Virus record (IMG/VR): IMGVR_UViG_3300010430_000027
Span: 5,347-69,346 of that record
Length of the DNA stretch: 64,000 bases
From: a virus
Direction: 5' to 3' (one strand)
Below are positions 1-59,200 of this stretch, in pieces; position 1 is the first letter of the stretch, and every line of letters starts with the position of its first letter. Both the position numbers and the translations under genes were made by a program. Below the pieces are notes generated by a model that had not been told where the DNA came from, ran no database searches, and saw nothing but the letters and a program-made list of their open reading frames with translations.

Positions 1-360
1 ATTCGTGATATTTTTACGGGTGAAACTATATATGAAACAGACAATATAGGTGATTTTAAAGAATGGCATAACTCCTTATATAGCGTCGATCATGTGAACC
101 CTAAGCATTATAAGAACTTCTTCCAAGATTTTCAGTGGCTTGAGGTTCAACAACATATAAGCAAGGACATTGAAGCAGTGTGTGAAGGCATGCAGAGAAA
201 GTATGTGGACAGACGTGGTCAAAAAGATGATGAAATCCAAGAATTGAAGAAGTCACTTTGGTACTTGGGATTTTGGATAGCCTACAAAGCGAACGGCAAT
301 AAGCCGATACTCATAAAAGACATTCCCAGGTTAATTGATGTGGAAAATATGTGGAAATAA
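1..360 (+). CDS. DUF3310-family protein (T7 gp1.7-like putative nucleotide kinase), 5' end outside window
   Basis: Frame is open from base 1. Motifs DHVNPKHY and KY..R.G.K...QELKKSLWYL are typical of DUF3310. Confidence 0.7.
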   Translation: MRDIFTGETIYETDNIGDFKEWHNSLYSVDHVNPKHYKNFFQDFQWLEVQQHISKDIEAVCEGMQRKYVDRRGQKDDEIQELKKSLWYLGFWIAYKANGNKPILIKDIPRLIDVENMWK

Positions 361-375
361 TATAAGAGGTATGAA

Positions 376-2340
376 ATGAAAGTCTTGTATGATATAGAGA
401 CTGATGATTTGCTACCAGGTCTTACGAAAATGCATCTGTTGGTTGCACACGATTTGACAAATGACATCAGGTACGAATTTTTGGAGGGAGATGAAGGGTG
501 GCGAAAAATATTGGATAACGCCACAACTGTGATAGGACACAACATAATTAGTTTTGATAATATGGCTTTGAGGAAATTGTTCAACTACGAGTTCCCTAGA
601 TCTGTGAATTTCCACGATACCATGTTAATGTCTCAAATACTCGATTACATGAGATTCGGCTATGGAGGTCATAGTCTACAGGTATGGGGTGAGTATCTCA
701 ATTTTCCAAAAGGTGAGATAGATAGTTACGAAGTATACACAGAGGAGATGCGTGTGTACGGCAACAGAGATGTAGATTTGAACGCCATAGTATACCAAGT
801 GCTGTTGGATGAATTCAAGAGTCTATTCCAAAAAGTTCCTTATATAAAGACCTACATGCAAGCAGAGCACTATGCAGCCAGATGGCAGGCTGAAGCGCAG
901 TTTCATGGATGGCCTTTTGACAAAGAAGGAGCAGAAGTATTGTTCGCCGAACTGGACGTGAAATTGACGGAAATACGAGACAAGTTAGAGCCATTGCTTG
1001 GTTGGAAGTCTATAGTGATGGATAAGGAATTTGGAGAAGTGATTGTCAAGAGTCCCAAGTGGGTGAAGAGCGGTGTATATCATAGTCACACAGCAACATG
1101 GTTTGACATACCTCCAGAGTGTGGTTCGGATATACTGGAACCAGAAGAGATAGTTGACATACTGGAAAATGCTGAAGACTTTGAAGATTCTCCTCTGTTA
1201 CCCATTGCTGCAGCCATTGCAACATACGGTTACAGGCCCATAGAGGGTGACTTCTGTAGAGTGGACTTTGCACCCAGGAGTCTGTCTTCTCCAGCTGATG
1301 TGAAGGTATTTCTATTCAAGCATGGATGGGTACCATCAGAATGGAATACCAAGAAGGATGAAGAGACAGGCGAGATAAAGAATACTTCTCCGAAAATCAT
1401 AGACGAAGATCTTGAATTGTTGGGTGGAGACGGTCAGTTGTATAATGAGTTCAAATCCATGAGTTCCAGACACAGCATAGTTAATACATGGATAGAAGAG
1501 GTTGATGAGAATGGAATGTTACATGGTGAATCTATGCATGTGGGAACACCAAGTATGCGTGTGAGGCATCAGATCATTGTAAATGTACCCACTCCAGAGA
1601 AACCGTATGGAACTGAAATGAGGAAGCTGTTTAAGGCCATGCTTGGGTGGAAGCTCGTAGGTTGTGACTCTGCAGGTAATCAAGCAAGAGGCCTGGCATT
1701 TTATTTGAAGAATAAAGAGTTTCTCAATGTAATCCTCAATGAGGACATTCATGAGTACAATAAAGATAAACTGAATGAGGTCTTGGTCAATCTTGGTTTT
1801 GAACCTGTTTGCGAACGTCATATGGCTAAGAGGATACTGTATGCATTCTTATTCGGAGCTTCCGGAGGAAAGATATGGAGCTACATTTTTGATGTTGACG
1901 ACAGTGTAAATGGAAACATGCTCAAACATGGATTCACCCATGCGGTCCCTGGATTCAAGACACTACTAGACAAGTTGAAAGAGATTTACAAAGCCACCTC
2001 TAGACAGAAAAGAGGTTACGGTTATATACCAGGGATTTCTGGCAACAGAATTTATGTGGATAGTGCACATAAGCTTTTGGTGTATCTCTTACAGAGTCTA
2101 GAGAAGGCCACATGTAGTGCTTCAGTGATGTTGACCATGCAAGGGCTGGAAGATGCAGGGATTCCCTATGTACCATTAATATATTACCATGATGAAGAAG
2201 ATTTCATGGTACCAGAAGAGTACGCTGAAGAGGCAGCTAGAATAGGTAAACAAGCATTTGTTGATGGACCGCGCTTGTTTGACATTGAGATCATGGACGG
2301 TGATAGTAAGATCGGAGATACATGGTATGAAATACATTAG
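376..2340 (+). CDS. polA: Family A DNA polymerase (T7-like) with 3'-5' exonuclease
   Basis: Exonuclease motifs YDIETD, GHNIISFD and Y..RDV; polymerase motifs A (VGCDSAGNQAR), B (RHMAKRILYAFLFG) and C (YHDE). GAGG RBS upstream. Confidence 0.95.
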   Translation: MKVLYDIETDDLLPGLTKMHLLVAHDLTNDIRYEFLEGDEGWRKILDNATTVIGHNIISFDNMALRKLFNYEFPRSVNFHDTMLMSQILDYMRFGYGGHSLQVWGEYLNFPKGEIDSYEVYTEEMRVYGNRDVDLNAIVYQVLLDEFKSLFQKVPYIKTYMQAEHYAARWQAEAQFHGWPFDKEGAEVLFAELDVKLTEIRDKLEPLLGWKSIVMDKEFGEVIVKSPKWVKSGVYHSHTATWFDIPPECGSDILEPEEIVDILENAEDFEDSPLLPIAAAIATYGYRPIEGDFCRVDFAPRSLSSPADVKVFLFKHGWVPSEWNTKKDEETGEIKNTSPKIIDEDLELLGGDGQLYNEFKSMSSRHSIVNTWIEEVDENGMLHGESMHVGTPSMRVRHQIIVNVPTPEKPYGTEMRKLFKAMLGWKLVGCDSAGNQARGLAFYLKNKEFLNVILNEDIHEYNKDKLNEVLVNLGFEPVCERHMAKRILYAFLFGASGGKIWSYIFDVDDSVNGNMLKHGFTHAVPGFKTLLDKLKEIYKATSRQKRGYGYIPGISGNRIYVDSAHKLLVYLLQSLEKATCSASVMLTMQGLEDAGIPYVPLIYYHDEEDFMVPEEYAEEAARIGKQAFVDGPRLFDIEIMDGDSKIGDTWYEIH

Positions 2341-15216: not shown

Positions 15217-15235
15217 GACCCCGTTAAATTAACCC
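15217..15235 (+). promoter_or_regulatory. 19-bp conserved motif, copy 1 (candidate phage RNAP promoter)
   Basis: GACCCCGTTAAATTAACCC, identical at 23317 and 51128; all three copies are intergenic. Confidence 0.7.
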
Positions 15236-22908: not shown

Positions 22909-22927
22909 CCAGTACATAAGTAATCAA

Positions 22928-22979
22928 CCCCTCTCTCATCATCCTTCGGGGTGGTGGGAGGGGACAACCTTTATTTTTT
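22928..22979 (+). terminator. Intrinsic terminator
   Basis: Long hairpin CCCCTCTCTCATCATCC-TTCG-GGGTGGTGGGAGGGG (C-UUCG-G loop) followed by TTTATTTTTT. Confidence 0.7.
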
Positions 22980-22996
22980 CGCAATCGGAGTTAATA

Positions 22997-23272: not shown

Positions 23273-23316
23273 CCCCTCAAAACCGCTCTCTTGTGGATAC
23301 CACACAAACGTTGATA

Positions 23317-23335
23317 GACCCCGTTAAATTAACCC
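23317..23335 (+). promoter_or_regulatory. 19-bp conserved motif, copy 2 (candidate phage RNAP promoter)
   Basis: GACCCCGTTAAATTAACCC at the start of the non-coding region before the terminase genes. Confidence 0.7.
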
Positions 23336-41879: not shown

Positions 41880-44318
41880 ATGTCTAAGATCTCCAGAATA
41901 TTTGTCGGCAATGTTCCACCACCTACTCCTTCGACGTATGCCCAGACGATTAATTTGTGGATGGCCGTAGATGAAGTAGATACAGCATCTTTTTTAGCTC
42001 CCTCTGTCTATCTATTGCAGGCACTCGAAACCGATACGGTGTTTACCTTAACGCCGATCACACCCGTTACGGGGACGTTGACACAAGCCGTAGAGACTGA
42101 TACGGCGTTCTCACTACCGCTCAATGCTTCTTTCTTACAAGCCGTTGAGACCGACACTGCGCTCGTACTATATGAACCTGAAACGTTGTTGCAGGCACTC
42201 GAAACCGATACGGCGTTCTCGTTACCTCTCAATGCTTCTTTCTTGCAAGCCGTTGAGACTGACACTGCATTTGTAATTGAAGGTTCCCTGGATATATCCG
42301 GTACCATCGGCATTGCGATAGACACTGAAAGTGGCTTAACACTGTATGAGCCGGAGACCATAGGCCAAGCACTCGAAACGGACACTGCGAATGTTCTATA
42401 CGAGCCTGAGACCATCGGTCAATCACTGGAAACCGATACAGTATTCGCATTAACACCTATAGCCGTTGTTGTGGGTACATTGGTCCAGGCGCTTGAAACA
42501 GATACCGCCAACATTATCTACACCCCAGAGACCATAGCTCAGGCGTTAGAAACTGATACTGCCATATCGTTGGCTTTGAATGCTTCAATACTGTTTGCAC
42601 CAGAAACCGATACAGCGTTACCCATACTCGGTTCATTGGACATTTCCGGTACTCTTGGGATAGCAATAGACACTGAAAGTGGTTTGGTTCTATATGAGCC
42701 GAATACTATAGGCCAAGTATTAGAAACAGATACAGTTGGGATAGTATACGCTCCAGAGACAATCTTACAAGCCCTGGAAACGGATACGGCTTTCATAGTA
42801 ACTCCTGTGGTTTCTGTGATAGGTACGTTGGTACAAGCCGTTGAGACGGATACAGCCAACTTATTATATTCTCCAGAGACCATAGCCCAAGCTCTTGAGA
42901 CTGACACCGCGTTCTCACTGCCGCTCAATGCTTCTATCTTGTATGCGTTGGAGACTGATACTGCATTACCGGTAACAGGTTCACTGGATATTTCTGGTAC
43001 CCTTGGTATTGCGATAGACACTGAAAGTGGCCTGCTCATTTTCAGTCCAGAAGAAATAGTGCAAGCGCTTGAGACAGATACCGGCTTTGTGTTGACGCCT
43101 TTGGCTGAAGTTACAGGGACACTTGTTCAAGCAATAGAGACGGATACAGCCAATTCACTGTATGAGCCTGAGACAATAGTACAGGCTTCGGAAACTGATA
43201 CTGCGACCATTTTAGAACCCATTTCAGACGTTGTGGGCATAGTAGTACAAGCCCTAGAAACGGACACTTCTGGTGAGATATCTGCTCCTGAGACAATTGG
43301 GCAGGCCTTGGAGACAGACATAGCGCTGCCAATACTTGGCTCATTGGATATTTCTGGAACACTCGGTGTAGCAATTGACAACGAGAGTGGTCTACCAATT
43401 ACGGGTTCGGTTGCCGTAGTGGGTACTACCGTTCAAGCAACAGAAACGGACACAGGTATTGAGCTTGTTCCTAAAACGGCTCTTTCGGTCGTGGTTGGAC
43501 AAGCGCTTGAGACCGATTCAGCTCTAACAGTATATGCACCGGAAACCATTCTTCAGGTAGTCGAGACAGATACAGCAGGTTTGTTGTACGGTTCAGAGAC
43601 ACTGGGTCAAGCCACTGAGACCGATCTCTCAGGAATAATGGTTCCAAGGATAGCCATAAGCGCTATTCTTCCTCAAGCCATTGAGACTGACACTGCTCAA
43701 GCCTTTACCGGAATCATTCTCGTAAAAGGTTTGCTGAGCACCGCTTCTGAAAACGATACTTCTCAAATATTGGTTCCGGTCACTGACGTTACAGGTTCCT
43801 TGGACTTAGCTGAAGAGACAGACAGCGCTTTGAACGTGACAGGCTCGTTGGCCATTGCGGGTCTGCTCCAGATTGCATCCGAGTCGGACACCGTGCAGCC
43901 GCTCTCAGGCGTTTTCGCGGTCTCCGTGGGTCTGGGCACCGAAACGGAAACGGCCCAGACGTTCACACCTGTGACTGCGGCAACGAGCACTATCCTTACT
44001 GCCGTTGAGAACGATACGGCCATAAACCTATCTTCACCCTCACAAAACATATCGGCTACAGTGGGTGCCATAACGGGTGGTCAAAGTCTAACGAATCTTA
44101 CTTACTGTGTATTTGATTCTTATGATCTATCGACCGCAAATATTGTTAAACAGGGTATAGGCGAAACTACAGATGGTAGTGGCAATCTTGTGGTAGACTT
44201 AAATGGAACTGGGTTATCACAAAGTGCACCGGTTACTATTGTTATAACAAATTATACAACAACACCGATCGGTAGCAGTCGCGCTGCCGTTTGTTTCACA
44301 ACCGTCTTGGTGGCTTAA
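41880..44318 (+). CDS. Highly repetitive acidic protein (QA[LV]ETDTA repeats), probable fibre/stalk
   Basis: Dozens of [QI]A.ETD[TS] repeats at ~16-22 aa spacing; very few basic residues. Confidence 0.85.
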   Translation: MSKISRIFVGNVPPPTPSTYAQTINLWMAVDEVDTASFLAPSVYLLQALETDTVFTLTPITPVTGTLTQAVETDTAFSLPLNASFLQAVETDTALVLYEPETLLQALETDTAFSLPLNASFLQAVETDTAFVIEGSLDISGTIGIAIDTESGLTLYEPETIGQALETDTANVLYEPETIGQSLETDTVFALTPIAVVVGTLVQALETDTANIIYTPETIAQALETDTAISLALNASILFAPETDTALPILGSLDISGTLGIAIDTESGLVLYEPNTIGQVLETDTVGIVYAPETILQALETDTAFIVTPVVSVIGTLVQAVETDTANLLYSPETIAQALETDTAFSLPLNASILYALETDTALPVTGSLDISGTLGIAIDTESGLLIFSPEEIVQALETDTGFVLTPLAEVTGTLVQAIETDTANSLYEPETIVQASETDTATILEPISDVVGIVVQALETDTSGEISAPETIGQALETDIALPILGSLDISGTLGVAIDNESGLPITGSVAVVGTTVQATETDTGIELVPKTALSVVVGQALETDSALTVYAPETILQVVETDTAGLLYGSETLGQATETDLSGIMVPRIAISAILPQAIETDTAQAFTGIILVKGLLSTASENDTSQILVPVTDVTGSLDLAEETDSALNVTGSLAIAGLLQIASESDTVQPLSGVFAVSVGLGTETETAQTFTPVTAATSTILTAVENDTAINLSSPSQNISATVGAITGGQSLTNLTYCVFDSYDLSTANIVKQGIGETTDGSGNLVVDLNGTGLSQSAPVTIVITNYTTTPIGSSRAAVCFTTVLVA

Positions 44319-44554
44319 TGTTACTAAATACTTGGGATAAACTCAACTCTTGGAAAGAAACCATCTTTACCGGTGGTGGAGGTTTTTGGGGTGAGAATAC
44401 TGGGTGGCCTAACAGTTGTGGTATAGAATTGTTTACAGATGGTTGGATACAATGTGGACAACAGACGCCTGGATTTATTTCAGAGCCAATTGAAAGAAGG
44501 GTGAACTTTTCTAGAATAAGAGCATTCCTGAAAAGACCCCGACTTAAACTTTAA
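44318..44554 (+). CDS. Hypothetical protein
   Basis: TAATG coupling at 44318; Trp/Gly-rich. Confidence 0.5.
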   Translation: MLLNTWDKLNSWKETIFTGGGGFWGENTGWPNSCGIELFTDGWIQCGQQTPGFISEPIERRVNFSRIRAFLKRPRLKL

Positions 44555-44565
44555 AAGAGGTTAAT

Positions 44566-44934
44566 ATGAACGATGTAGCAGAAAAAGAAACTCCTGTAGT
44601 TAAGGTTGAACCTGCCAAGGCAGCTCCTGCTCCTGCGGCTATTGCTCCCAAGGCTGAATCTATGTCTCCACCAGTACCTAAAGAATCAGCATTGGAAAGG
44701 ACATTGAAATCGAGTGTGGCAGCGAAGGATGAGGATGTATCCACTCACGTGAATCTTGCAGTACCGACGCCTGGTCTTATCAAAAAAGGTAAGGCTCGTG
44801 ATTTTGAGGGCAAAGACTTGATTCCTTCCAACTGGGTTATTCAGACTCACGGAAACGGTATTATCGCTAGAAGCGTTACTAATAACGTTTTTGAAGGAAG
44901 TCGTACCGAGTTTAACAAGAAGCTTAGGGGTTAA
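44566..44934 (+). CDS. Hypothetical protein
   Basis: GAGG RBS; Pro/Ala-rich N-terminus. Confidence 0.65.
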   Translation: MNDVAEKETPVVKVEPAKAAPAPAAIAPKAESMSPPVPKESALERTLKSSVAAKDEDVSTHVNLAVPTPGLIKKGKARDFEGKDLIPSNWVIQTHGNGIIARSVTNNVFEGSRTEFNKKLRG

Positions 44935-44938
44935 TTAA

Positions 44939-46504
44939 ATGGGTGTCGCAAACGCTGCGGACAAGACTAAGATAGTCGCGGATCCGAATGCAGAATACGA
45001 GTCTATGAAAGACATATGGCAAAGAAGCCGCGCTGTCTGTAGTGGTGAGCGATACGTGAAGAACTTAGATTACTATATAGATGTCCACTACTATACAAAT
45101 CTATTAATCCCTTTTTCGCCATCCATGTCAGATGCTCAGTATGCATTCTATAAAGCTGAGGCAGAGTTGCCAGGGATTGTGTCGCAATTCGCAAGGATGC
45201 TTGTCGGTGGTTTATTAAGGAAAGAACCTTTATTGGAATTACCTGATAGTGTTCCAGAAGGTACAATGGACTGGATAATGAATAATTTCACTCAGGACAA
45301 CTCCACCATAACTTCCTTTTTGGATGTGGGGTTGTGGGAAGAGATGCAGACCAGTCGTGCTTGGGTGTACGTTGACCATCCTGTATTGACAGATGAAGAA
45401 GCTGGTACGATAAGTCAAGAAGAGATGTTTGAAAGGGCTCCTTATCCTGTTCTTTGGAAGGCAGAGAATATTATTAATTGGAAGACTAAGACAGACGTAA
45501 AGGGTAATTCCATTCTTGAGCAGTTGATTGTGAAAGGGACAGTGGCAAGATATCCTGAAGATAATGAATTCCATCCAAACTACATAAGTACTGTATTTGT
45601 ACATGAGCTGGTTGGGGGTCTTTATCAGATCAGAGTATTTGAGAAAGTTGTGGAAGAGAGTAAAGTTCCTATGGTCAGTGGAACAAAGTTCGAAGACAAT
45701 TCGAAGACTATGGATAAGTACGTACTCACTGAAACTAAGACCAATATATTTGCCAATAATGAGCGTCTTACTATAATACCTGCATGGCCTCTAAACGGTA
45801 GTATCTCCATAACAGAGCCGATACTTTCTCCGATTATCGATAAAGAGGTTGCCTTATATAATAAGTTGAGTAGACGTAATCACCTGTTGTATGGTGCTTC
45901 TACATATACTCCCATAATACAATCAGATATGTCTCCTGAAGATTTCAAGAAAATCGTGGATGCTGGTCTTGGGACATGGTTGCATCTGGGTGTAGATGAC
46001 AAGGCCACTGTGTTGGAAACTCCCACAGCAGCTTTGAAAGACATGGAAACGGCCATAGCCAGTGCCATTGAAGAGATGGCTAAGTTGGGTATACGCATGT
46101 TGTCTCCTGAGAGTGCTCAATCTGGTGTTGCTTTGGAAATACGTAATGCGGCGCAAAATGCACAATTGGGCTCTTTGAATAATAAGATTAGTATGATAAT
46201 GTCTAAGGTCATTGCATTCATGATCGAATGGCGCACAGGTGAACAGATTAAAGATTCAGAAGTGAAGTTCATGTTATCAGCAGATTTCAACCCAATACCC
46301 TTGGGTGCTGATTGGCTAAGATTGGCCACTGAGTGGTATGAGACAGGGCTGATCCCACGTTCTATTTGGTTGCAAATTCTCAAGCAGAATGATATGATCG
46401 CTCCTGATTACGATGACGAAGAAGGTGTCAAGGAAATTGATGAAGACGAACTCATAAACAAGGAAGAAGAGGAAGATCCTGAGTTCTTTGAAAATGTCAA
46501 ATGA
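44939..46504 (+). CDS. Portal protein (DUF4055-like)
   Basis: 521 aa immediately before the MuF gene; Y..Y..AE..GIV, WVYVDHP, PYPVLWKAENIINW, SGVALEIR, acidic C-terminus. Confidence 0.85.
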   Translation: MGVANAADKTKIVADPNAEYESMKDIWQRSRAVCSGERYVKNLDYYIDVHYYTNLLIPFSPSMSDAQYAFYKAEAELPGIVSQFARMLVGGLLRKEPLLELPDSVPEGTMDWIMNNFTQDNSTITSFLDVGLWEEMQTSRAWVYVDHPVLTDEEAGTISQEEMFERAPYPVLWKAENIINWKTKTDVKGNSILEQLIVKGTVARYPEDNEFHPNYISTVFVHELVGGLYQIRVFEKVVEESKVPMVSGTKFEDNSKTMDKYVLTETKTNIFANNERLTIIPAWPLNGSISITEPILSPIIDKEVALYNKLSRRNHLLYGASTYTPIIQSDMSPEDFKKIVDAGLGTWLHLGVDDKATVLETPTAALKDMETAIASAIEEMAKLGIRMLSPESAQSGVALEIRNAAQNAQLGSLNNKISMIMSKVIAFMIEWRTGEQIKDSEVKFMLSADFNPIPLGADWLRLATEWYETGLIPRSIWLQILKQNDMIAPDYDDEEGVKEIDEDELINKEEEEDPEFFENVK

Positions 46505-49500
46505 TAAACAATGCTAATACAACTATTTACGATGGAAGGGTAGATAGGGCAGCATTACTGAGATTGTATGAGAAGAACACTATAGGGAAGGTTGAAGTGG
46601 TGTTAAATGGGCATGTTGTTAGATTGGACAAGATTATTAAGACTTCCAAATTGACATCTAGAAATTTTAAGACTTTCCAATTAACAGTGGACAGGGAACT
46701 GAAGAGAACTTTTAAAGAAGCATTCAATGTTTCCAAAAGATCTTTATTGGATCTTGCATCAGACCAAGTATCGTTTACGTTCCAAAACCTAGAAGCATCG
46801 GTCAGTAATGTGTGGCGTACTCGTAAACCACAGAGGCGTGTAGCTGAAGAACTCGTATTGAAAAATCCTTTGCATCAGAATAAGACTCTAGCATTGGGTT
46901 GGATAGACGTAAGTAATAATGAGAAAAAGCGAATAGTGGGTGTGATCCGGAAAGGTCTGGCCGATGGCGATACTCCAGAAGTCATTGCCAGGAATGTTAG
47001 GCGTGGCAGTGTTCACAAAATCACAAGAAATCAATCTAAAGCTTTAGTTACCACATCAATTACTAGCGTGTATGCTCAGGCTGACCACGCTGTTTATGAG
47101 GCCAATGCTAAGATGCTACGTGGGTGGCAATATGTGGCTGTACTGGATTCAAGAACTACTCAAATATGTACACATAGGGATGGTAAAATATATCCCGTAT
47201 CTGACACATCGCATCTACCTCCAGCGCATTGGCGCTGTAGATCTACAACGACTCCCATTGTAAAAAATTGGAATGATTTGGGTAAGTTGGAAGGTGTTAA
47301 TCAGGTACGTAAGAGAAATTTAAAGAAGTTGACTCCTGCCCAAATAGCATTCTATGATGGTCAAACGCCACTTAAGGAGTCTTACAATGCATGGTTACTG
47401 AGGCAACCTAGCGATGTTCAATTACGACATCTAGGAGATCACCAAAAGGTAGAACTCTTTAACAATGGTAAATTAGAGGTCAGTAAGTTCACTGCTCCAA
47501 GTGGTGCCGAATTAGGAATACGGCAGTTACGTCAATTGACAGACTCTGACTATTCTACCCCCAATGACACCAAGAAATTCGCATTGGCCAAACAAAAATT
47601 GGATGCAATGCAGTTAGGAGCCAGTGCTCCAGAGGATTTCCTAGATAGTATTAAGCTCACAAATACCTTGAAAGAATACTATATCTTACAATCTCGTGAG
47701 TTGGGCGGCACGTTGTCCTTAACAAACTATCGTGGTAACTTAATTGGTAGCAAGACCAGGACTAAGAATTTGGTTCTCAATAGATTGCCCAGAGATGATC
47801 AACTGCTTTTCAATCCCATAACAGGTAGATATGAAGACAGTAGATTGTTTCAACCTTCTCCGGCCATCTTACAAAACAATCTAAGACTGGTGAATGAGAG
47901 CACAGTATTGAAAGCAGCTGATAAGACATATATTAATAAGTTCATAAAGAGTCTAGAAGACCATATGAGTGTTAATGAAAGAGCTGTTGTATCAGACAAT
48001 CTCAGAATCCTTTTCACAAGATATAGAAAGAATCCATCTGCATGGGCCAATTTTAAGGCCGTATCACAAGCACAAGTTAAATTTGATGTAATGAACGTTT
48101 CAGATGCAATTGAAACACAACTGAGAAAAGATGCTGACTTTTTAAAGAAGTTAAAATTAGACAATTATATTGATCCGATTCTGGGTCCTGTACAATTTAA
48201 AGATCTATCTGACAAGTTTGTAGCTAATATTCTCGCTAGAAATAAGTGGGAAGATAGGGTGGCTCCTAAGCTTGCTAGACAGCTCAGAGATGTATTTGAT
48301 GTACGCATCCCAATTAAGATAAAAAGACGCGTTCCAGATGATAAGTTACAGCAATTCTACCTAAGGTTCGCCCATAGATTGAGTCTAGCAGACAGTCCCG
48401 ATTTGGATAATTTTGCTGTGGCTCTGGGCAGAGATCTCTATAACATGGCCAATATAAACGGTACCAGAACTCAATGGTTGAATCTGGGAAAGCGACTGGT
48501 GGAGTCAAATAACAAATTCTATAGTCTAGAGACTTTTGGTGTTCAAAAACGTAGGATGAAGAGCAAATTGAGTGGTCAATACTTTGGACCATACTATGAC
48601 ACTTTCTCGCATAATATAAGAATTACCGATCCCAGGATTCAGCGGTACGCCAAGTTGAATCGTAGCATAGATGTTGGCTTGCGCGTGGGCGTTATAGACC
48701 CCAAGAACCAATTAATCTTTAGGGAAGGCGCTAAGACGTATTATGTTAGAAACAACATAGGATTGTTGACTGACACAAGGATACCGATTACCTCCACTTC
48801 CAGTTTCACAAATTTTCCTGAAAAGTTCTTAGACAAAGATATGATAGATTCCCTGAATTGGGCATCCAAAAGTAAATTCAAAGTAGATAGAGATTATCAT
48901 GATTTTGTTGTAAAGCTGTTGAACTTCAGTGATGACCGAGGTAAAGCCGCGTTCTATGACAACTTGAACACGTACAAACAATACATCATTTCGAGAGGAG
49001 ATTCTTATGAACGTTTCAAAGCTATGGAGTGGTTTTCGAAAAATGACATTGCCTTCAGCAATCACGCGTTTATTGACAGCCGTGCTAGGATTTATGAAAG
49101 AGGATTTATTGGGCCTCAAGCCGGAGAAACCTTCAGACCGTTCTTAAATACTGCCTATGAACGTAACTTCAGTCCAAGGGACTTTCAAAACTTTCAAGAT
49201 CAGATAGGTTCTTTTCTTGGTGGTTTGGATGACTTCTTCGAAGGTAGATTCAACTCATTGAGTGTTCTTGGTAGACAGCGTTTGGCAGACAAATGGCGTC
49301 CTGAGATTGTAAAGATAGGGCACCAGATGCTCAGAGGTAAACCCAGAGATATTAGAGCCATTCTGAGTTCTGAATTTGTATCTAAAATAGAAGGCGAAGA
49401 ATTGGGTAAATTTTTCAGGCTGGCTATGGAGTCAGCGAAGATAGATGATTTCTTGGGTGGTGTTTATACTCGTAAGTCTGTGGCCAACCTAAGTAAATAT

Positions 49501-51123
49501 AGAACTGCATTAGCGCTTGAACAAGATGCTTCATCTTCCGGTGCACAGATCATTGCATTGACTACTAAGAATAAGCAATTGGCTGAACTCAGTAACGTCA
49601 TTCCAACCAACCAAAAGAAGAGACTCTATGACGAGATTGCCGGTCTGACTTTCAATGATCCCAGATTTAAGAGACTCAACATGCGTCTAGGATTGAATGA
49701 GAGAGATCTCAGAAAGGCCGCTAAAGCTCAGAACATGGTAACATTCTATGGTGCTGGAGAAAGAACCGGTGTACTGAATGTTGAAAAGAAGTTGGCCAAG
49801 ATACTCGAAGAAGACGGTGAGACCCTTGTGGTCAGGGCGTCTCAGAGAGATGAGGTATTGAGTGAGATCTCGGCGAGAGTGGCACGATTTGAAAGATTTG
49901 ACCCTGAGACAGCGAGAGAGTTGACAGTACTGAGAGCTAATATAAGAGATCTTTTCAACAAAGGTCTCAATCCCGGTCAGGATATGATGGAAGAATTGTT
50001 CTTTTTGACGCCAACCACAAAAGAGTTCTTGGAGAAGATGTCCAAAAGTTATAATAAAGTTGTAACACCGAACGACTTTAAAGAGATAGCTTCTATAATG
50101 AGTGAGCATCTTGCTATACAAACGCCTATACTAAAGTCTTTCACGAAATTCATGGGGAGATTGGCTTCAGACTTTCTAGATAATGCCAAGCCATCTAAAG
50201 CTGATTTCGATTGGACGTCTGTATTCAAGCAGACATTAGTAGGTACACGCAAGGATGGTTACAAGTTGCCTCCCAGAGTGGGCGAAATCCTGGGAGTCAG
50301 CACAAAGAAGTCTGTGTCTGAAAGCTTTCTGAATCGTTTTGGATTTTGGAAACCCAATGGCACTTTGGATGAGATACTGTATGGTCCCAGGGCTCCCAAC
50401 AATAGACGTACAGGTGCCAAGTATTTCAAGACAAGTGTATTCAAGGTAAAGAAGCTATTTGAATTGGAAATATTTAAAGCCAACGTATTACCGAAGAGAT
50501 GGACAAGCGCCCCTTGGGTTAACTTTGATGGCAAGATACTTGAACAAAATTTCACATCCAGAATTGAACAGAGATTGTTTTATAGAGACAGAGATGGAAA
50601 TCCTATAAACAACATTATTCAAATTGATAATAAGACTGAAGCCACTTGGTGGGAACAGTTTGTCAATGATTCTGGCAATATAAATGATATTGCAGATACA
50701 GCTAAGGCTAAGACTTCATTTGCCGTAAATGGCACTCACTCTAATGATGCTGTATTGGTAAAAAGATTCCATCTTTGGGGAAGAGATAATAAAGTAAACA
50801 CTGCAACTGTTCATGATGCGTTTTTCACTAATGCAGCTGAGATGTTACAAGCCAAAGATGCACTGAGAGGTATATATGCGAAGGCTGTAGACTCGAATGT
50901 AATAAAACAAACATTGGATGAGATGCTCTCTAGAGGATTTCCCAGACATTTATATGATCAGTATTTAAGAGAAGCCATTGAGACTGGACTTATCCCAGTT
51001 CCAGGTAAATCGAGAATAGACGGAAGACTTCTGACTGATACAGACATACTAGGTCGCGAAGATATTTTAAGAAACATTGAAGAAGTATTTGAAGACGATT
51101 TAGCTTGGTATGGTATCGGGTAG
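46501..51123 (+). CDS. MuF (SPP1 gp7-like) head protein fused to a T7-type single-subunit RNA polymerase
   Basis: MuF motif WQYVAVLDSRTTQIC..RDG...PPAHWRCRST. RNAP motifs DSRARIY...PQ, motif A QDASSSGAQ, motif B RKAAKAQNMVTFYG, HSNDA and motif C VHDAF. Confidence 0.9.
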   Translation: MINNANTTIYDGRVDRAALLRLYEKNTIGKVEVVLNGHVVRLDKIIKTSKLTSRNFKTFQLTVDRELKRTFKEAFNVSKRSLLDLASDQVSFTFQNLEASVSNVWRTRKPQRRVAEELVLKNPLHQNKTLALGWIDVSNNEKKRIVGVIRKGLADGDTPEVIARNVRRGSVHKITRNQSKALVTTSITSVYAQADHAVYEANAKMLRGWQYVAVLDSRTTQICTHRDGKIYPVSDTSHLPPAHWRCRSTTTPIVKNWNDLGKLEGVNQVRKRNLKKLTPAQIAFYDGQTPLKESYNAWLLRQPSDVQLRHLGDHQKVELFNNGKLEVSKFTAPSGAELGIRQLRQLTDSDYSTPNDTKKFALAKQKLDAMQLGASAPEDFLDSIKLTNTLKEYYILQSRELGGTLSLTNYRGNLIGSKTRTKNLVLNRLPRDDQLLFNPITGRYEDSRLFQPSPAILQNNLRLVNESTVLKAADKTYINKFIKSLEDHMSVNERAVVSDNLRILFTRYRKNPSAWANFKAVSQAQVKFDVMNVSDAIETQLRKDADFLKKLKLDNYIDPILGPVQFKDLSDKFVANILARNKWEDRVAPKLARQLRDVFDVRIPIKIKRRVPDDKLQQFYLRFAHRLSLADSPDLDNFAVALGRDLYNMANINGTRTQWLNLGKRLVESNNKFYSLETFGVQKRRMKSKLSGQYFGPYYDTFSHNIRITDPRIQRYAKLNRSIDVGLRVGVIDPKNQLIFREGAKTYYVRNNIGLLTDTRIPITSTSSFTNFPEKFLDKDMIDSLNWASKSKFKVDRDYHDFVVKLLNFSDDRGKAAFYDNLNTYKQYIISRGDSYERFKAMEWFSKNDIAFSNHAFIDSRARIYERGFIGPQAGETFRPFLNTAYERNFSPRDFQNFQDQIGSFLGGLDDFFEGRFNSLSVLGRQRLADKWRPEIVKIGHQMLRGKPRDIRAILSSEFVSKIEGEELGKFFRLAMESAKIDDFLGGVYTRKSVANLSKYRTALALEQDASSSGAQIIALTTKNKQLAELSNVIPTNQKKRLYDEIAGLTFNDPRFKRLNMRLGLNERDLRKAAKAQNMVTFYGAGERTGVLNVEKKLAKILEEDGETLVVRASQRDEVLSEISARVARFERFDPETARELTVLRANIRDLFNKGLNPGQDMMEELFFLTPTTKEFLEKMSKSYNKVVTPNDFKEIASIMSEHLAIQTPILKSFTKFMGRLASDFLDNAKPSKADFDWTSVFKQTLVGTRKDGYKLPPRVGEILGVSTKKSVSESFLNRFGFWKPNGTLDEILYGPRAPNNRRTGAKYFKTSVFKVKKLFELEIFKANVLPKRWTSAPWVNFDGKILEQNFTSRIEQRLFYRDRDGNPINNIIQIDNKTEATWWEQFVNDSGNINDIADTAKAKTSFAVNGTHSNDAVLVKRFHLWGRDNKVNTATVHDAFFTNAAEMLQAKDALRGIYAKAVDSNVIKQTLDEMLSRGFPRHLYDQYLREAIETGLIPVPGKSRIDGRLLTDTDILGREDILRNIEEVFEDDLAWYGIG

Positions 51124-51127
51124 TTAT

Positions 51128-51146
51128 GACCCCGTTAAATTAACCC
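51128..51146 (+). promoter_or_regulatory. 19-bp conserved motif, copy 3 (candidate phage RNAP promoter)
   Basis: GACCCCGTTAAATTAACCC between the RNAP stop and the scaffold gene. Confidence 0.7.
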
Positions 51147-51230
51147 TTGAGCTATGGTTTTATAGCTTACATTTTTTAATTTGTAATATTGTATATTACG
51201 TCATTAAGTTGTACTTGAGGATAAATAGTT

Positions 51231-51905
51231 ATGCCGCCTAAAAAAGATGATGAAGACAAGAAAGATGATTTAGATGCTAAAGACATCAAAATCGACGACG
51301 ATAAAGATTCAGACGAAGGTACTAAAACACTGGAAGAACAAATTCAAGCAGGTATTGATGAAGCGTTAAAGCCAATTAAAGAGAAATTGGACGGTGCTTA
51401 CGATGCTCGTGACGAAGCTATTGCCAAAGTTAAAGACTTTGAAAGGAAAGAACGCGAAGCAGAACTTGCTCGTCTCGAAGAGGAAGGTAAGCACAAAGAA
51501 GCTTACGAATCGAGGCTTGCTGAAGAGAAAGCTGAAACGGAAGCTCTTAAAAAAGAAAATGTTAAGCTTACACGCGACATTTCTGTTAAAAATGAGCTGG
51601 CCAAATACGAATTCAGGAATGGCACCGCCAGTGAGATGGCATTCCGAAATGTTGCTGATAGTCTAGTACAAGACGATAAAGGGACATGGGTTCACAAATC
51701 TGGAGACAATATCGAAACTACAGTAAAAGACTTCTTGGAAAATTCCGACAATTCCTTCCTACTGAAAGTTAAAACATCATCTGGTTCAGGCAATGATACT
51801 GAAATTCTACCCGACACCTCAGGTACAGAGTCGAAATCTCTTTTTACAAAACCTATAGCTGAGGTACTTAAATTAGCTGGCGAGGGAAAACTTCGCAAAA
51901 AATAG
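51231..51905 (+). CDS. Capsid scaffolding protein
   Basis: Highly charged coiled coil directly upstream of the capsid gene; GAGG RBS. Confidence 0.75.
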   Translation: MPPKKDDEDKKDDLDAKDIKIDDDKDSDEGTKTLEEQIQAGIDEALKPIKEKLDGAYDARDEAIAKVKDFERKEREAELARLEEEGKHKEAYESRLAEEKAETEALKKENVKLTRDISVKNELAKYEFRNGTASEMAFRNVADSLVQDDKGTWVHKSGDNIETTVKDFLENSDNSFLLKVKTSSGSGNDTEILPDTSGTESKSLFTKPIAEVLKLAGEGKLRKK

Positions 51906-51917
51906 AGGAAGTTATAA

Positions 51918-53117
51918 ATGACTTTACGTACGGACGTTGCTGGTGCAACTGAGTTTGCACTACAAGAAGCACTCGGAGCGTACTCCGATGAGGCTTATAC
52001 TAACGCCAGGAAACTGTCAAGTACTGGAATTGTAAGCGGAAATCCAGAGATTGATACGAGTTCAGAGACCTATATCGGTCAGATGCGCTGGTTTCAACCT
52101 CTGAATCCTGTTATCAATGTAGCATCGTTGACAGTTAGCACAGCTGGTACTCCTACCACTTATGGTTCAGAATACCTGAACTACGTTAAGACGGCTCGTA
52201 CACACGGTGCTGAAAAGGTCAACTTGCAGACTCTTGTAACTCAACAAGACGGTCTTGCAAAAGTTGGTCGTGACTTCGGTGAAACTAAAGCGCAAGACGA
52301 GCACAATGCTGTTCTTTCTTTGCTGAAAGGTGTTTGTATTGCGGAAGCATTGCACGGTGCAGGTTCAGCCGGTGGTGGTGCTGGTCTAGGTGGACAATCC
52401 TGGGATAACGATCCCAAAGATCCACTGTACGGCTTTTACGTAGATCTCGGAGCTGCTCTTTTGGTTACTGCTCCCGCAGCTGCCAATATGGGTGCACAAC
52501 GTGCAGCTGGCTTTCTTGATGCTGTTGGGATGGCTTTCAAAGATTACGAGCCTTCTTTCTTCTATCTGGTCACAAGTCCAGAAGTTCTTGCATCTCTGCG
52601 CTCCGCAAATCTGGTTGATGAGACTACAGTTGTCGATGGCAACGTTGAATTCAATACAATCTTCCAAGGCAAGTTCCGTTTGATTCAGAGCCGTGCAAAT
52701 CAAAATCTGACTCCCGCAGAATTGGATCTTTTTGATGCAACCAATGCTACAAAGGCTGGTGTAGATATTCTTGGTCCTAAGACTACTTATATTGTTGTCC
52801 CTGGTGCTATCGCAATGGAATCTCTGCAGATCGCTGAAGATGTCGAGATCGATCGTGATGCTGCTGCCTACTTAGGTGGTGGTACTACTCAGATCTGGTA
52901 TCGTTGGGGTTATGTCGCTCATCCGGCTGGTTACAATTGGGCCGGTTCTCAGGATAAGTTCCCGAGTGATGCTGAGTATCAGTATGTTGTAGAAGCTGGA
53001 ACTCCTGGCCCATTGGATGCTGCAGCAGTGGCGCTTCCCGCAACAACTACCGGTACTTGGGTTCGTAAGACTGAATCAGTACTTTCACTTGGAATCCTTC
53101 CTGTATTCCATAGCTAA
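51918..53117 (+). CDS. Major capsid protein
   Basis: 399 aa after scaffold; C-terminal VEIDRD...GG....YRWGYVAHPAGYNW pattern of siphovirus coat proteins. Confidence 0.85.
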   Translation: MTLRTDVAGATEFALQEALGAYSDEAYTNARKLSSTGIVSGNPEIDTSSETYIGQMRWFQPLNPVINVASLTVSTAGTPTTYGSEYLNYVKTARTHGAEKVNLQTLVTQQDGLAKVGRDFGETKAQDEHNAVLSLLKGVCIAEALHGAGSAGGGAGLGGQSWDNDPKDPLYGFYVDLGAALLVTAPAAANMGAQRAAGFLDAVGMAFKDYEPSFFYLVTSPEVLASLRSANLVDETTVVDGNVEFNTIFQGKFRLIQSRANQNLTPAELDLFDATNATKAGVDILGPKTTYIVVPGAIAMESLQIAEDVEIDRDAAAYLGGGTTQIWYRWGYVAHPAGYNWAGSQDKFPSDAEYQYVVEAGTPGPLDAAAVALPATTTGTWVRKTESVLSLGILPVFHS

Positions 53118-53129
53118 TCGGAACGAATT

Positions 53130-53612
53130 ATGACTCTCGCCAAAGACACAAATTCTTATGTGACTAGGGCAGAGGCAGATACATATCTCGCAGACCGTTT
53201 GGATGTTCCTGCTTGGGTTGCTGCCACTGATCCTTCAAAAGATCAAGCACTTATCACAGCTACATCGCTTCTAGATCTTCAAAGCTACACTGGGTATGCT
53301 ACTTCAAATACCCAGCCTCTGGCATTTCCTCGTGTAGGTGAATACTTCGATGCTCGGGTTGGTGCAATAGTTATCTTAGACAGTGCTGTTGTTCCAAACC
53401 GAATCTTAGTTGCCACGTACGAATTAGCTGTACACTTATTAAACAATACAGGTGTGTTGGATGATACAGGTACGGTGAAAAACATTACAGTTGGTGAAAT
53501 TGAACTGCAGAATATAAGGAATCCCAACAAGATTCCCGGCTTTGTGGATCAATATATAAGGCCGCTGTTTAGTGTTACTGCACGTACGAATGCGTGGTGG
53601 AGAGCGAACTAG
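53130..53612 (+). CDS. Head-tail adaptor (DnaT-like phage family)
   Basis: NSYVTRAEAD.Y, ALITAT and QPLAFPR motifs. Confidence 0.8.
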   Translation: MTLAKDTNSYVTRAEADTYLADRLDVPAWVAATDPSKDQALITATSLLDLQSYTGYATSNTQPLAFPRVGEYFDARVGAIVILDSAVVPNRILVATYELAVHLLNNTGVLDDTGTVKNITVGEIELQNIRNPNKIPGFVDQYIRPLFSVTARTNAWWRAN

Positions 53613-53983
53613 TGAGCTACGTCAATCTTATCAACAAGAATGTAAACTTTGCATTCAACGCTGTTAAAGACTTAGCTACCACTGTTGTTCTAACAAAGAA
53701 GAACGTTACTGGATATGACTTCGGAACGAAATCGAACATCGAAAACGCGGACACTGTCATCAGCACCAAGGTTGTGGTCATAAATGCAACTAAGGGCAAC
53801 AGAGAAGACCGTAAGGCTAGTGAAAGGAATACTCAAAAGCAAGCTATTATGTTAAAGAAAGAAGACGTGGGTGATGTCTCTTTTTACGAAACGGTTACGA
53901 TAGACTCTGCCATTTTTCAATTGGGTAGAACAATTAAAGATGATGGTTTCATTGTGACTGTGGAAGCTTATAAGGAGATTTGA
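53612..53983 (+). CDS. Putative head-closure/stopper protein
   Basis: Position after the adaptor; GTG start overlaps the previous TAG. Confidence 0.6.
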   Translation: MSYVNLINKNVNFAFNAVKDLATTVVLTKKNVTGYDFGTKSNIENADTVISTKVVVINATKGNREDRKASERNTQKQAIMLKKEDVGDVSFYETVTIDSAIFQLGRTIKDDGFIVTVEAYKEI

Positions 53984-53984
53984 T

Positions 53985-54392
53985 ATGGGAAAATATGCAG
54001 ATGTGCAAAATGATATATTCTCTGTATTTGATGCCGCTGGTTGGGCCACAGAGAGTATCAAGACATATCCTCAGAATCACATACCAATCAACCCTGGAAC
54101 TGAATTTATCAGAGTATCGATAGTTCCTTCTAGTTTTCTTTCTACGCTAGATTCACTTTCAGGTCAATTAATTATAGATATATTTACGTCTGCTGGAAAC
54201 GGACCACTGCGTCCTTTCGAAATTGCAGATATCTTGGATCAATACTTGACAGGACAATACTTGGAAACGAGTGGCAATGGTGCTACACAGTTCCTCAACA
54301 GTACGGTGGGAGCTGGTCAGTTGGACATTGATGATCCTTCTTTGTATCGATCTATTTACACAATTTCTTTTAATTACACTGGAGTACAATAA
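53985..54392 (+). CDS. Putative tail terminator protein
   Basis: SGQLIIDIFTSAGNG...IADIL pattern; position before the tail tube gene. Confidence 0.7.
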   Translation: MGKYADVQNDIFSVFDAAGWATESIKTYPQNHIPINPGTEFIRVSIVPSSFLSTLDSLSGQLIIDIFTSAGNGPLRPFEIADILDQYLTGQYLETSGNGATQFLNSTVGAGQLDIDDPSLYRSIYTISFNYTGVQ

Positions 54393-56297: not shown

Positions 56298-59200
56298 ATG
56301 TCAGGTGTAAGTATAGATTTTGAAGCTAATGCGACATCTGCCAGAAAAGAACTTGCCTTAATCAATAGGCAACTGGCGGAGTTGATACGCAACTCTGTCA
56401 AAACCAATCAATCTCTTGGGGCTATTAGTGGCAATAAGCTGAGAGCAGTAAATAAGGCAGTAGGTGATACCACCAAGCAAGTAGGTAAATACAAGACTGC
56501 CTCTCTTGATACAAATAAGAAAATAGTGGCATCAAACAAAAAAGTTGCCAGTAGCTTTTTCAGTATAAAGAATGCTGTAATTGGCCTTGCTGCTGCTTTC
56601 GCAACCGTTACTGGCGTGAATGCTATAAACCGTTCTGCAGACGCGCTCGTCAATCTGGACAATAGATTACGTCTGGTAATAGACAGCACAGACGAACTGA
56701 TTATAAGGCAGAATTCTTTATACCGTGTTGCCAGAAGAGCTCGTGCCGAATTCAGAACCACTGTGGAATTGTATTCAGATTTTGCGTTCGCTTTAAAGAA
56801 CACAAGTAAAAGCGCTGACCAGATAGAACGTTTGACAGAGACCTTGCAGAAGATGGCCGTACTGTCTGGAGGTACCGCACAGACAATAAGAGCCGCTTTT
56901 GTGCAGCTCAAACAGGGTATCGCCTCAGGTACACTCAGAGGTGAAGAATTGAATTCTGTTCTTGAGCAGCTACCTTTCCTGGGTAACGCCTTGAAGGAAT
57001 CTCTGAAGCTGGACGCGGGAGCATTACGCAAGTTCGCTGAAGAAGGCAAGCTCACGACCAATCTTGTGGTGAAGGTTCTGGAAGACTACCGAAAGCGCAC
57101 TGATGATAAATTTAATAAGACATCCATAACGGCACAACAAGCTGTCGGACAGCTGACCACATCCATATCCAGATTCTTTGGTACACTCAGTTTGGACTTT
57201 GGATTTGCTGAAGGATTCGCCACACGCATAATTGCTATGACAGATGCAGTGGATGGGTTTGCTAAGAATCTTCTATTGTCTAGCGTGATAGTGAAGCTTG
57301 CTGCAAGGAATTTCGCAACAGACTTTCTCGAAGGTAATTTCTTCAATTTGGTAAAAGAAGCCGTGCTTAATGGAGATGTACTGTTGAGCAGATCTTTTAA
57401 GCTATATTCATTTTATCAGGATATGCATGAGAAGATTACCGGTCTATTGGCTATCTTTATTACTCAAAAGAAGAAGTTAGAAGAGGCTATAACAGGTCCC
57501 ACCCTTAGAGTCAGAGCTGAGACAGCCAGAGAAGAGTTCACCTTGGATGAAGGGAAGATACCATCATTTGGACAGTTGCTGGAAAAGAATCCTTTTTCCG
57601 AAGTGAAAGACAGTTCCAAGGGCCTGCTTCTTGAATTTGCGATACTGCTAAAGAATATCGGCGTTTTGATATTTAGCACGTTGTCGGGTATTGCAGGATT
57701 GTTTCCCAAACTATTGGGACCACCGATAACCGTAGTTACTAACTTGTTTGTTGAGTTAAATATATTAGTCACTCGATTCTCTGCCAATGTATTTAAAGCT
57801 TCATTTCCGATAAGAGCCTTTGTGGAGTCCATGAATGACACGTTATCGGTATTCAGGAGAGGTAGAAACGTAGGTAGGGCTTTCACAGAGGTCTTTAGAT
57901 CTACCAGTATATCTGATCTAAATGACAATCTTGAAGATCTGAACAGAGAGTTCATAAGAGGTCCAACCAGAAATTGGCCCGTTGTATGGGAACGTGTTAC
58001 GAATTCCATACGTACAGCTCTGACGCCTTTACAAGACATGCTAATATCTCTGGGCCTGATCGATAGCAAGCTTCTGAGAATACGCAACAGACGTTTGGAA
58101 CGAGCCAAAGAAGTTATAATCTCAACGGCGGAATCCATAACCAGGGCATTCACTGAAATTCTGGAGCCTGTATTGCAAGTACTATTGGCCAGGCTTGTAG
58201 GCTTTGTAACTGTTTGGGCTGAATCATACAGACGTGCAATAACGGATACATTCAGTGATGCCGGTGGAAGATCTTTGGCTTCAGCCCTTGTCAGACAAGT
58301 TAAGGCAATCGTCAAAGTAGTCAGAGACTTAGCATCTGAAGCATTTGAAGGTGTGTTTGATGTACAGCTTTTTGATGCTAACAACTTTAAAGAGATAGCT
58401 TCAACCATATTAACTGTATTTAGAGAAGTATTCTTTAGACTTTTCAGTTTCATATCTGGTTTCTTTTCGGAGTTGTCTACTCTGGTGTGGGAATCTGTGA
58501 GAGATTCTTTTGGTAACGGTATAGATGCCTTCCTGGCGTTTGCTGGAGATGCATTAAAAACTATCTCATCAACAATTTCATCGCCGCTGCAAACTGTTGC
58601 AAATGCTTTGTCTGATATAGACTTCGATTTCAGCTTTAACATAGATATTCCGGAATTCAATATAGGGGACACGTTAACGGATACGTTCGAACGTGTATAT
58701 GAAATAACAAGAGATAGATTGAGTGACACTTTGGATATCATTTCAGAGTTTGCCTCAAGTGCTGTGGGCTATTTTGCAGATATATTTGATAAGATCGTGG
58801 GGAGGTCTTTTTGGCCAGATACAATAGACGGTATAAACGAATATACCAGAAATATATTTGAAAGTGAGAGTATATTGGAAGGTTTTTCAAGTAGAATCTC
58901 AGGAATATTTCAGGGTATCCAAAAGCGATTGTCCTCTGTGGGTCTTGATTTTTCTGACACGTTTTTGGACGCCTTTAAGTCTTTGGAAAATATAGATTTT
59001 GCAGCAGTTGTGGACAGTATTCTGTCGTCAATCATAGGAGAAGTTGCATCTGCTGTGCTGTTCATATTTGGTGGGTTCAAGTTAAAGCTCATTGCATTGG
59101 TATCAACTTTAGGTTCAATAAGTAATGTCGTTGATGGCGTATTTGAATCTTCTGGAGAAGTGATTGGAAGCGTCTTGGCAAGAATTGGAACGGACTTTGG

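Follow-up and report, generated by a model that had tools for sequence, protein, structure and literature searches.

Two described systems come close to the locus analyzed here. Phage N4 works with a cascade of three RNA polymerases (RNAPs) and three promoters, in which the virion RNAP (vRNAP) hands over to RNAPII. Proteins of the MuF family, according to the passages on them in PMC5512222, PMC9503650 and PMC5576092, are head-packaged carriers of C-terminal enzymes for injection, with SPP1 gp7 bound to the portal in 1–2 copies per capsid. The passages of PMC5512222 on phage N4 handle the vRNAP apart from MuF, describe vRNAP modules as confined to N4-like phages and report N4 gp50 to be almost always fused to a zincin-like peptidase domain. 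Here we describe a gene that unites a MuF domain with a T7-type RNAP. It is located at 46501..51123 (+) of a 64,000-nucleotide stretch of viral DNA (the window), which comprises positions 5,347 to 69,346 of the 69,346-bp record IMGVR_UViG_3300010430_000027, and its product is probably a polymerase that travels in the virion. A description of such a fusion was not found in the full-text literature (subscription journals and supplements lay outside the search), and in the accessible text of PMC5576092, which deals with MuF toxins, the word "polymerase" occurs 0 times.

The gene is a single uninterrupted open reading frame (ORF) with an ATG start, encoding 1540 aa, and no long frame competes with it. 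Its parts are as follows, with the basis of each assignment in brackets.

46501..51123, + strand, MuF-RNA polymerase fusion gene, 1540 aa (ORF, Pfam, PHROGs)
46501..47550, + strand, MuF / SPP1 gp7-type head morphogenesis domain, residues 1-350 (Pfam, PHROG 241)
46936-47250, + strand, MuF Pfam core, residues 146-250 (PF04233)
47551..48189, + strand, conserved, mostly helical connecting region, residues ~351-563, ~210 aa (fold models)
48190..51120, + strand, T7-type single-subunit RNA polymerase module including its N-terminal domain, residues ~564-1540 (VIA-align, Foldseek)
49075..49095, + strand, DxRxRxY motif, DSRARIY, residues 859-865, R863 invariant (motif search)
49516..49548, + strand, motif A, LEQDASSSGAQ, residues 1006-1016, catalytic D1009 (motif search, alignment)
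49714..49758, + strand, motif B, KAAKAQNMVTFYGAG, residues 1072-1086, with K1072, K1075, Y1083 and G1084 (motif search, alignment)
50809..50826, + strand, motif C, VHDAFF, residues 1437-1442, catalytic D1439 (motif search, alignment)

By profile and fold the protein belongs to both the MuF and the T7-like RNAP families. The N-terminal MuF domain, which had been proposed in the first-pass annotation, was recovered as Phage_Mu_F (PF04233) at residues 146-250 (E 1.8e-13, 51.7 bits against a Pfam cut-off of 29.6), and PHROG 241 "head morphogenesis" covers residues 5-349 (E 7e-60). C223, H243 and C246 of this domain are invariant in the homolog alignment A2. The gene is the only PF04233 match in the 69-kb record and stands directly 3' of the portal gene within the head/packaging module, the position expected of a MuF gene. 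At the other end of the protein, RNA_pol (PF00940) was matched with an E-value of 1.4e-12 (47.6 bits; cut-off 22), and PHROGs gave hits to the RNA polymerase families phrog_414/2051 at about residues 996-1113. As a phmmer search of PDB sequences returned marginal matches only (mitochondrial RNAPs, E about 0.3), a comparison of folds was needed.

For this purpose an AlphaFold model of residues 351-1540 was built from a 30-sequence alignment (mean pLDDT 81.1, pTM 0.76). Its best PDB matches by Foldseek were mitochondrial and T7 RNA polymerases (E 3.6e-18 to about 1e-17), and VIA-align superposed it on T7 RNAP (8dh5_E) with Z 29.4 and an rmsd of 3.4 over 528 aligned positions, model residues 219..1190 pairing with T7 38..883 at 16% identity in the structural alignment. 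The model thus shows the right-hand polymerase fold along with the RNAP-specific N-terminal domain, T7 residues ~34-883 being matched from model residue ~214-220 (protein residue ~564-570) to the last residue. Yeast mitochondrial RNAP followed with Z 27.1, and N4 chains scored lower (Z 13.9-18.8) than T7 and mitochondrial RNAPs (Z 20-29). According to the model the polymerase module is complete, having a counterpart of the T7 N-terminal domain and reaching the very last residue, which upholds the earlier claim of a complete T7-type enzyme. The last residues, at the free C-terminus, are a conserved WYG(I/V)G, of which W1536, Y1537 and G1538 are invariant among closer relatives (alignment A4). 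The unassigned linker of ~550 aa that had been placed between the two domains proved too large; most of it is polymerase in the AlphaFold and VIA-align comparison, and only residues ~351-563 are left. For this connecting region no Pfam or PHROG family was found beyond weak tails of MuF families. A model of residues 1-600 gave no Foldseek match in the PDB at E <= 0.001, and the wide VIA-align search returned generic helical bundles only, the best with Z 10.8 over 100 residues, which is within noise; on these models, the MuF domain and connector are without an informative solved relative.

The DxRxRxY, A, B and C motifs and both catalytic aspartates, noted at first pass, were all located, and R863, D1009, K1072, K1075, Y1083, G1084, D1416 and D1439 are invariant in the 30-sequence alignment, which reaches down to 18% identity. 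These include the catalytic Asp of motifs A and C and the Lys and Tyr of motif B that characterize T7-like RNAPs, given a correspondence to T7 numbering which we take to be correct. Motifs B and C are spaced by ~350 residues, with a low-confidence insert at ~1238-1329 of the model. From its conserved residues the fused polymerase is catalytically intact and apparently active.

The sites at which relatives of the gene are interrupted are in line with this. Nine of 41 full-length loci in IMG/VR are interrupted at recurrent sites, namely at residues ~878, ~985, 1076-1082 (motif B), ~1104-1108, 1411-1413 and 1439/1440 (motif C). Seven group I introns (Rfam RF00028, 53-93 bits) were found in five of the eight interrupted loci scanned (L011, L047, L055, L008 and L065), lying in motifs B and C and near H1413, some of them with homing endonuclease genes. 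In EBPR siphovirus 1 (L005) the gene is split at residues 1080/1081, within motif B, by 850 nt (9187-10036) that carry the HNH gene gp48, and no intron model reached threshold for this insert. Homing elements at catalytic motifs fit an essential and conserved enzyme. In-frame insertions were also seen, one of ~148 aa after residue ~985 in homologs of the P0018 type (1689 aa), which was considered as an intein and is unlike one by its end residues, and one of ~233 aa at ~1104-1108 in the 1775-aa continuous frames of L015, L017 and L020. The window copy has no intron, and Rfam at the gathering threshold gave nothing across the whole window.

The fusion is widespread among relatives. A word-indexed protein search with residues 860-1540 as query gave 458 clusters, and among the best 120 listed, 112 combine PF00940 with PF04233 in proteins of ~1520-1700 aa. 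The eight shorter homologs were considered as unfused polymerases and rejected, being N-terminally truncated fragments. HMMER with residues 351-1540, a length-independent search of 1.84 billion representatives, found 164 proteins (85 at E <= 1e-30), none of which is an unfused complete form, the full-length matches all having ~330-790 residues before the match. Among the distant homologs scanned, MuF was present in 24/24 and PF00940 in 17/24 at E <= 0.001. In IMG/VR, 73 loci encode the fused protein, 41 of them cover its full length, and in 32 of these 41 it is one continuous frame. The portal gene is found upstream in 60 of the 73, the scaffold gene downstream in 40 and the major capsid protein (MCP) gene downstream in 39, with most of the others cut by contig ends. 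The survey of databases that the first-pass annotation had recommended thus yielded many homolog clusters as well as these 73 loci. Its worry that an assembly or frameshift artefact had joined two genes, in which case the fusion would be missing in relatives, can be regarded as refuted, with the fusion kept in more than 100 protein clusters, in all 24 distant homologs, in the isolates DSS3_VP1/PM1 and as a single frame in the 32 independent viral loci.

The only named phages with a full-length homolog are EBPR siphovirus 1 (gp47+gp49; 57.5% identity, 100% coverage) and the roseophages DSS3_VP1/PM1 of the Naomiviridae (29.6% identity, 94% coverage), which infect Ruegeria pomeroyi DSS-3, and a megablast of window positions 44000-54000 against the phage collection gave no match. 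Bacterial genomes searched with the single fused protein gave no match either; searched with alignment A4 they gave three loci, in a Gammaproteobacteria metagenome-assembled genome (MAG), there on a 74-kb contig of phage-genome size, and in a Beijerinckiaceae MAG. As binned phage contigs, they do not point firmly to any host. Members of the lineage come from lake, sludge and marine sources and include the Naomiviridae with their uracil DNA (dU-DNA).

The cysteine content of the protein sets it apart from the other enzymes of the phage. It has two Cys residues, C223 and C246, both in MuF, and none in residues 301-1540, where the polymerase part alone would be expected to hold ~20 at the pooled frequency of the enzymes (57/3403 residues). 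The second, canonical RNAP of the same phage has 11, and the DNA polymerase, exonuclease, primase-helicase, ribonucleotide reductase (RNR) and ligase have 5-18 each. The virion proteins show the opposite, with 0 in 2567 residues of the tape measure protein (TMP), 1 each in the portal and MCP, and 0 in the scaffold. Among homologs of at least 1400 aa, 122/129 have no Cys beyond residue 300, and in DSS3_VP1 the fused protein has two, both in MuF, vs. seven in the canonical RNAP. N4 gp50 likewise has 0 Cys in 3500 aa, as do the N4 virion proteins gp51 and gp52. Judged by its sequence the fused polymerase, though an enzyme, has the composition of particle proteins.

The canonical T7-like RNAP (768 aa; PF00940, 219 bits) is encoded at G000:C1:1291-3597 (+) of the record, 1.75 kb upstream of window base 1, and only motifs A and C align between it and the fused polymerase (BLASTP E 0.015). 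Both polymerases were found in 6/8 records searched (this record, G001, G002, G003, G005 and DSS3_VP1), whereas in the 54-kb partial EBPR record and in G004 only the fused one was found. DSS3_VP1 shares the gene order portal, fused gene, scaffold, MCP ... TMP ... canonical RNAP ... DNA polymerase I. The window also encodes a terminase, a major tail protein and a replication module (family A DNA polymerase, exonuclease, primase-helicase, RNR and ligase), and the virus is by its gene content a siphovirus with its own replication module. Its tape-measure ORF (56298-63998; >2567 aa) runs off the contig end and the frame does not resume at the contig start. Part of the genome is therefore probably missing from the record, and the CheckV estimate of 100% is probably generous.

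When set beside N4 gp50, the fused gene has in common with it a single-subunit polymerase of the T7 superfamily among late/virion genes, the complete absence of Cys from the polymerase, a second ordinary T7-like polymerase elsewhere in the genome and a related fold (Z 18.8 to mini-vRNAP, 3c2p_B). However, gp50 is a protein of ~3500 aa with a central polymerase between large flanking injection/encapsidation domains and with a zincin-like peptidase, whereas here there are 1540 aa, an N-terminal MuF, a polymerase with a free C-terminus and no peptidase domain found by Pfam, MuF being the only other domain. The fold is also nearer to T7 and mitochondrial RNAPs (Z 27-29), and the phage is a siphovirus with a long tape measure. 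The fused protein is accordingly not a member of the N4-like vRNAP (gp50) family, from which it differs in size, domain order, carrier and closest relatives by fold. With T7 RNAP it shares the full-length fold match, including the N-terminal domain and the C-terminal end, and motifs A, B, C and DxRxRxY, but it is far diverged, with a long stretch between motifs B and C, a head-protein fusion at its N-terminus and no Cys. The MuF effector proteins have the same N-terminal MuF, the same gene position directly 3' of portal and the published head-carrier idea. Their cargos, in the passages of the literature that name them, are toxins or host-modifying enzymes (ART, RelA/SpoT, RNases, 2H, Nudix, PRTase) of mostly temperate phages, while here the cargo is an RNA polymerase of ~980 aa in a phage that replicates by its own module. 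It differs from the MuF polymorphic toxins (Jamet et al., 2017) in that the C-terminal part is an RNAP and no toxin and in that a scaffold gene, not a small immunity-type gene, is found downstream. The crAss-like phages follow the same strategy with a virion RNAP, of an unrelated polymerase family and with unrelated packaging signals. The multisubunit vRNAPs of jumbo phages, as described in the relevant part of PMC7598289, likewise bring a polymerase in the particle and give independence from host RNAP, their polymerase family and packaging signals again being unrelated.

DSS3_VP1/PM1 and EBPR siphovirus 1 are the closest described counterparts, with full-length homologs in the same gene order, although the homologs are annotated only as head proteins, in DSS3_VP1/PM1 as "head morphogenesis / minor head protein-like". 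The resemblance to Naomiviridae lies in a shared gene order and in a homolog of the fused gene with 29.6% identity. The dU-DNA pathway of Naomiviridae, as given in the part of PMC12697855 concerned with it, comprises Dcd of PF00383 type and Dtm of PF12917 type. The DSS3 phages have both genes, whereas neither the PF00383 deaminase nor the PF12917 YfbR-like HD hydrolase was matched in the 69-kb record, which may be incomplete. A tie between the fusion and uracil DNA had been considered and was dropped, the dU-DNA genes being absent from the record.

The immediate neighbors of the fused gene belong to the head module.

44939..46504, + strand, portal protein gene (phrog_145, E 1.6e-60; DUF4055)
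51231..51905, + strand, scaffolding protein gene (phrog_206, E 2.9e-5)
51918..53117, + strand, major head protein gene (phrog_247, E 1.6e-18)

The ORF call and the two flanking PHROG assignments agree with the placement of a 1540-aa ORF between portal and scaffold reported at first pass. The portal TGA stop overlaps the fused-gene ATG at 46501 in an ATGA junction. A complex prediction for the portal (alignment A3) with MuF residues 1-350 (A2) gave a score of 0.00, which counts neither way for binding.

A 19-nt motif, GACCCCGTTAAATTAACCC, occurs in three exact copies in the window, where 0.01 would be expected by chance; all are intergenic.

51128..51146, + strand, promoter-like motif GACCCCGTTAAATTAACCC, 5 nt past the fused-gene stop and ahead of the scaffold gene (kept in relatives)
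23317..23335, + strand, promoter-like motif copy heading the terminase / tail-fibre / portal / fused-gene block
15217..15235, + strand, promoter-like motif copy heading a block of small genes

The core of the motif is located within ~130 nt past the fused-gene stop in 14/44 relatives. Two complete relatives with only ~55-62% protein identity have it unchanged, in seven copies each, which head every gene block including that of the canonical RNAP. Variant forms of the motif occur in other relatives (L013, L030 and L064 among them). On this pattern, the motif is a candidate phage-polymerase promoter. That the motif stands ahead of the canonical RNAP gene would agree with recognition by the delivered enzyme, without proving it. 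The repeated k-mers of the two complete relatives yielded only this motif and no second promoter class, and sigma-70-like promoters were not above chance. Upstream of the canonical RNAP, no recurrent hairpin class was found in this phage, where the contig is incomplete, or in three relatives. Three GC-rich CCC-TTCG-GGG hairpins in that region (G000:C1 ~822-841, ~1013-1032 and ~1262-1278) were considered as N4-like promoters and rejected, as two have T-runs, one was called by a terminator scan and they are absent in three relatives; they resemble terminators at the end of the tail operon that precedes the gene.

We consider it probable, by analogy with SPP1 gp7, MuF-effector fusions and N4, that the gene encodes a virion-borne "starter" RNA polymerase, which would be packaged, ejected with the DNA and used for early transcription before a hand-over. 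This is favored by the conserved and intact fusion, the sole MuF of the record, the second canonical RNAP, and a Cys-free polymerase that resembles N4 vRNAP and the virion proteins in this respect. At head assembly the MuF part would dock a few copies of the protein onto the portal or procapsid, as SPP1 gp7 does, and the Cys-free polymerase would become enclosed in the capsid with the DNA. During infection the polymerase would exit through portal and tail with the leading DNA end and then refold. It could then start transcribing the phage DNA independently of the host enzyme, perhaps contributing to uptake of the genome, and would make early products including the canonical RNAP, which in turn would carry the bulk of transcription. 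The logic would be that of the relay from N4 vRNAP to RNAPII, with an N-terminal MuF carrier, a more T7-like polymerase and a siphovirus body plan. The suggestion made at first pass, that MuF acts as a capsid-loading and ejection tag for an RNAP, is in this way partly supported. A broader proposal is that the whole of this widespread siphovirus lineage starts infection with a MuF-delivered RNAP, a few injected molecules starting, and perhaps pulling in, the genome while the free enzyme amplifies; this we put forward as a tentative possibility, within which the delivered polymerase may read the same single promoter class as the free one.

Several points weigh against a starter polymerase. Presence in the virion and ejection are argued from analogy with SPP1 gp7, MuF effectors and N4, both here and for every relative. 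Every virion protein of the phage is low in Cys, and this composition therefore speaks for a virion protein and not specifically for an ejected one. There is one promoter-like class only, which also stands ahead of the canonical-RNAP block, and a separate early class for the fused enzyme was not identified; the contig moreover ends inside the tape-measure gene, which leaves the sequence ahead of the canonical RNAP incomplete. Early transcription might alternatively be driven by the host RNAP. The main texts of the Naomiviridae papers PMC8323127, PMC12669031 and PMC12697855 contain the term "RNA polymerase" 0 times and report no virion proteomics.

Other roles for the protein can be weighed against this one. 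T7 RNAP reportedly takes part in processing concatemers and in packaging. A portal-tethered RNAP might act late and link the transcription of concatemers, or a paused complex, to procapsid recruitment and the start of packaging, for which neither ejection nor early action is required. The translational coupling to portal would suit such a role, as would the late block headed by the 23317 motif, the 671-nt non-coding stretch that follows this motif just upstream of the terminase region, and a small terminase that was not recognized by homology. We nevertheless regard it as unlikely, since in its Cys-free composition the enzyme resembles both the injected polymerase of N4 and the virion proteins of the phage itself, there is less need for a dedicated late polymerase when a second ordinary RNAP is present, and no sequence feature links the enzyme to a pac or cos site. 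Slightly less likely still is an intracellular late or middle RNAP that is fused merely for co-expression with the head genes and stays in the cytoplasm, cleaved or full-length, with at most the MuF part entering capsids. Two polymerases might split the work by time or amount if all blocks have one promoter-like class, and the pLDDT dip at residues ~350-358 of the fold model could be a flexible, cleavage-prone hinge. Against this, the fusion has persisted in lineages with 18-36% identity, HMMER found no unfused complete form, family searches recognized no prohead protease in the head module, and the loss of Cys is specific to the fused polymerase and not seen in the canonical one.

It is also conceivable, though very improbable, that the polymerase fold has been kept as a non-catalytic DNA-binding or structural "pilot" domain. 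The weak PF00940 match and the phmmer values of about 0.3 to solved RNAPs would agree with such a domain, but both catalytic Asp, the Lys and Tyr of motif B and the Arg of DxRxRxY are invariant in 30 divergent sequences, and the group I introns in motifs B and C are typical of essential catalytic sites.

If the protein is indeed a starter polymerase, virion-borne single-subunit transcription would not be peculiar to N4-like podoviruses and would have arisen at least twice. This second independent invention would be simpler than the N4 cascade, and would free the lineage from dependence on host RNA polymerase. MuF, known as a carrier of small toxins and host-modifying enzymes, would be loading a polymerase of ~1200 aa (roughly estimated at ~135 kDa) through the tail of a siphovirus. 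This would help to explain host-independent gene expression in the dU-DNA Naomiviridae, which are reportedly abundant in seawater, and in their relatives. What is new here is the combination of a presumed virion-delivered polymerase with the MuF effector carrier, both kinds being already known separately. The polymerase goes unseen under the current annotations ("head morphogenesis," "minor head protein"), and as homologs exist in the cultured roseophages DSS3_VP1/PM1 the idea is directly testable. A compact, Cys-free T7-type polymerase and a sharply conserved promoter-like motif of 17-19 nt would also make a possible orthogonal transcription tool.

A number of smaller features were noted in and around the window. 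Directly before the scaffold ribosome-binding site there are two TGT-triloop hairpins, GTAATAT-TGT-ATATTAC (51183-51199) and AAGT-TGT-ACTT (51206-51216), and relatives have TGT-loop hairpins with different complementary stems at the same site (GAGT-TGT-ACTC, GGC-TGT-GCC, AGAT-TGT-ATCT). Such hairpins are not enriched genome-wide (seven, typical for any triloop), and those before the scaffold gene might serve as a leader of the head operon. The 671-nt non-coding stretch at 23273-23943, between the second promoter-like motif and the terminase region, is partly AT-rich with inverted repeats and could be a packaging or replication site. Two free-standing genes of homing-endonuclease type are present, a SegE-like GIY-YIG gene at 4807-5280 (E 4e-14) and an HNH gene at 22796-23272 (E 3.8e-11). 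ARAGORN called a 93-nt tRNA-Tyr (anticodon gta) at 11296-11388, and a MazG-like pyrophosphohydrolase gene is located at 16322-16654. Repeated 11-13-mers occur at 17977-18779 within a run of small ORFs and at 42027-43681 in an 812-aa ORF (41880-44318), where they mark a repeated domain. In a 78.7-kb relative (G001), a 105-nt tandem-repeat array spans both contig ends, and the IMG/VR label "direct terminal repeats" could have arisen from repeats lying across a circular junction instead of from true termini.

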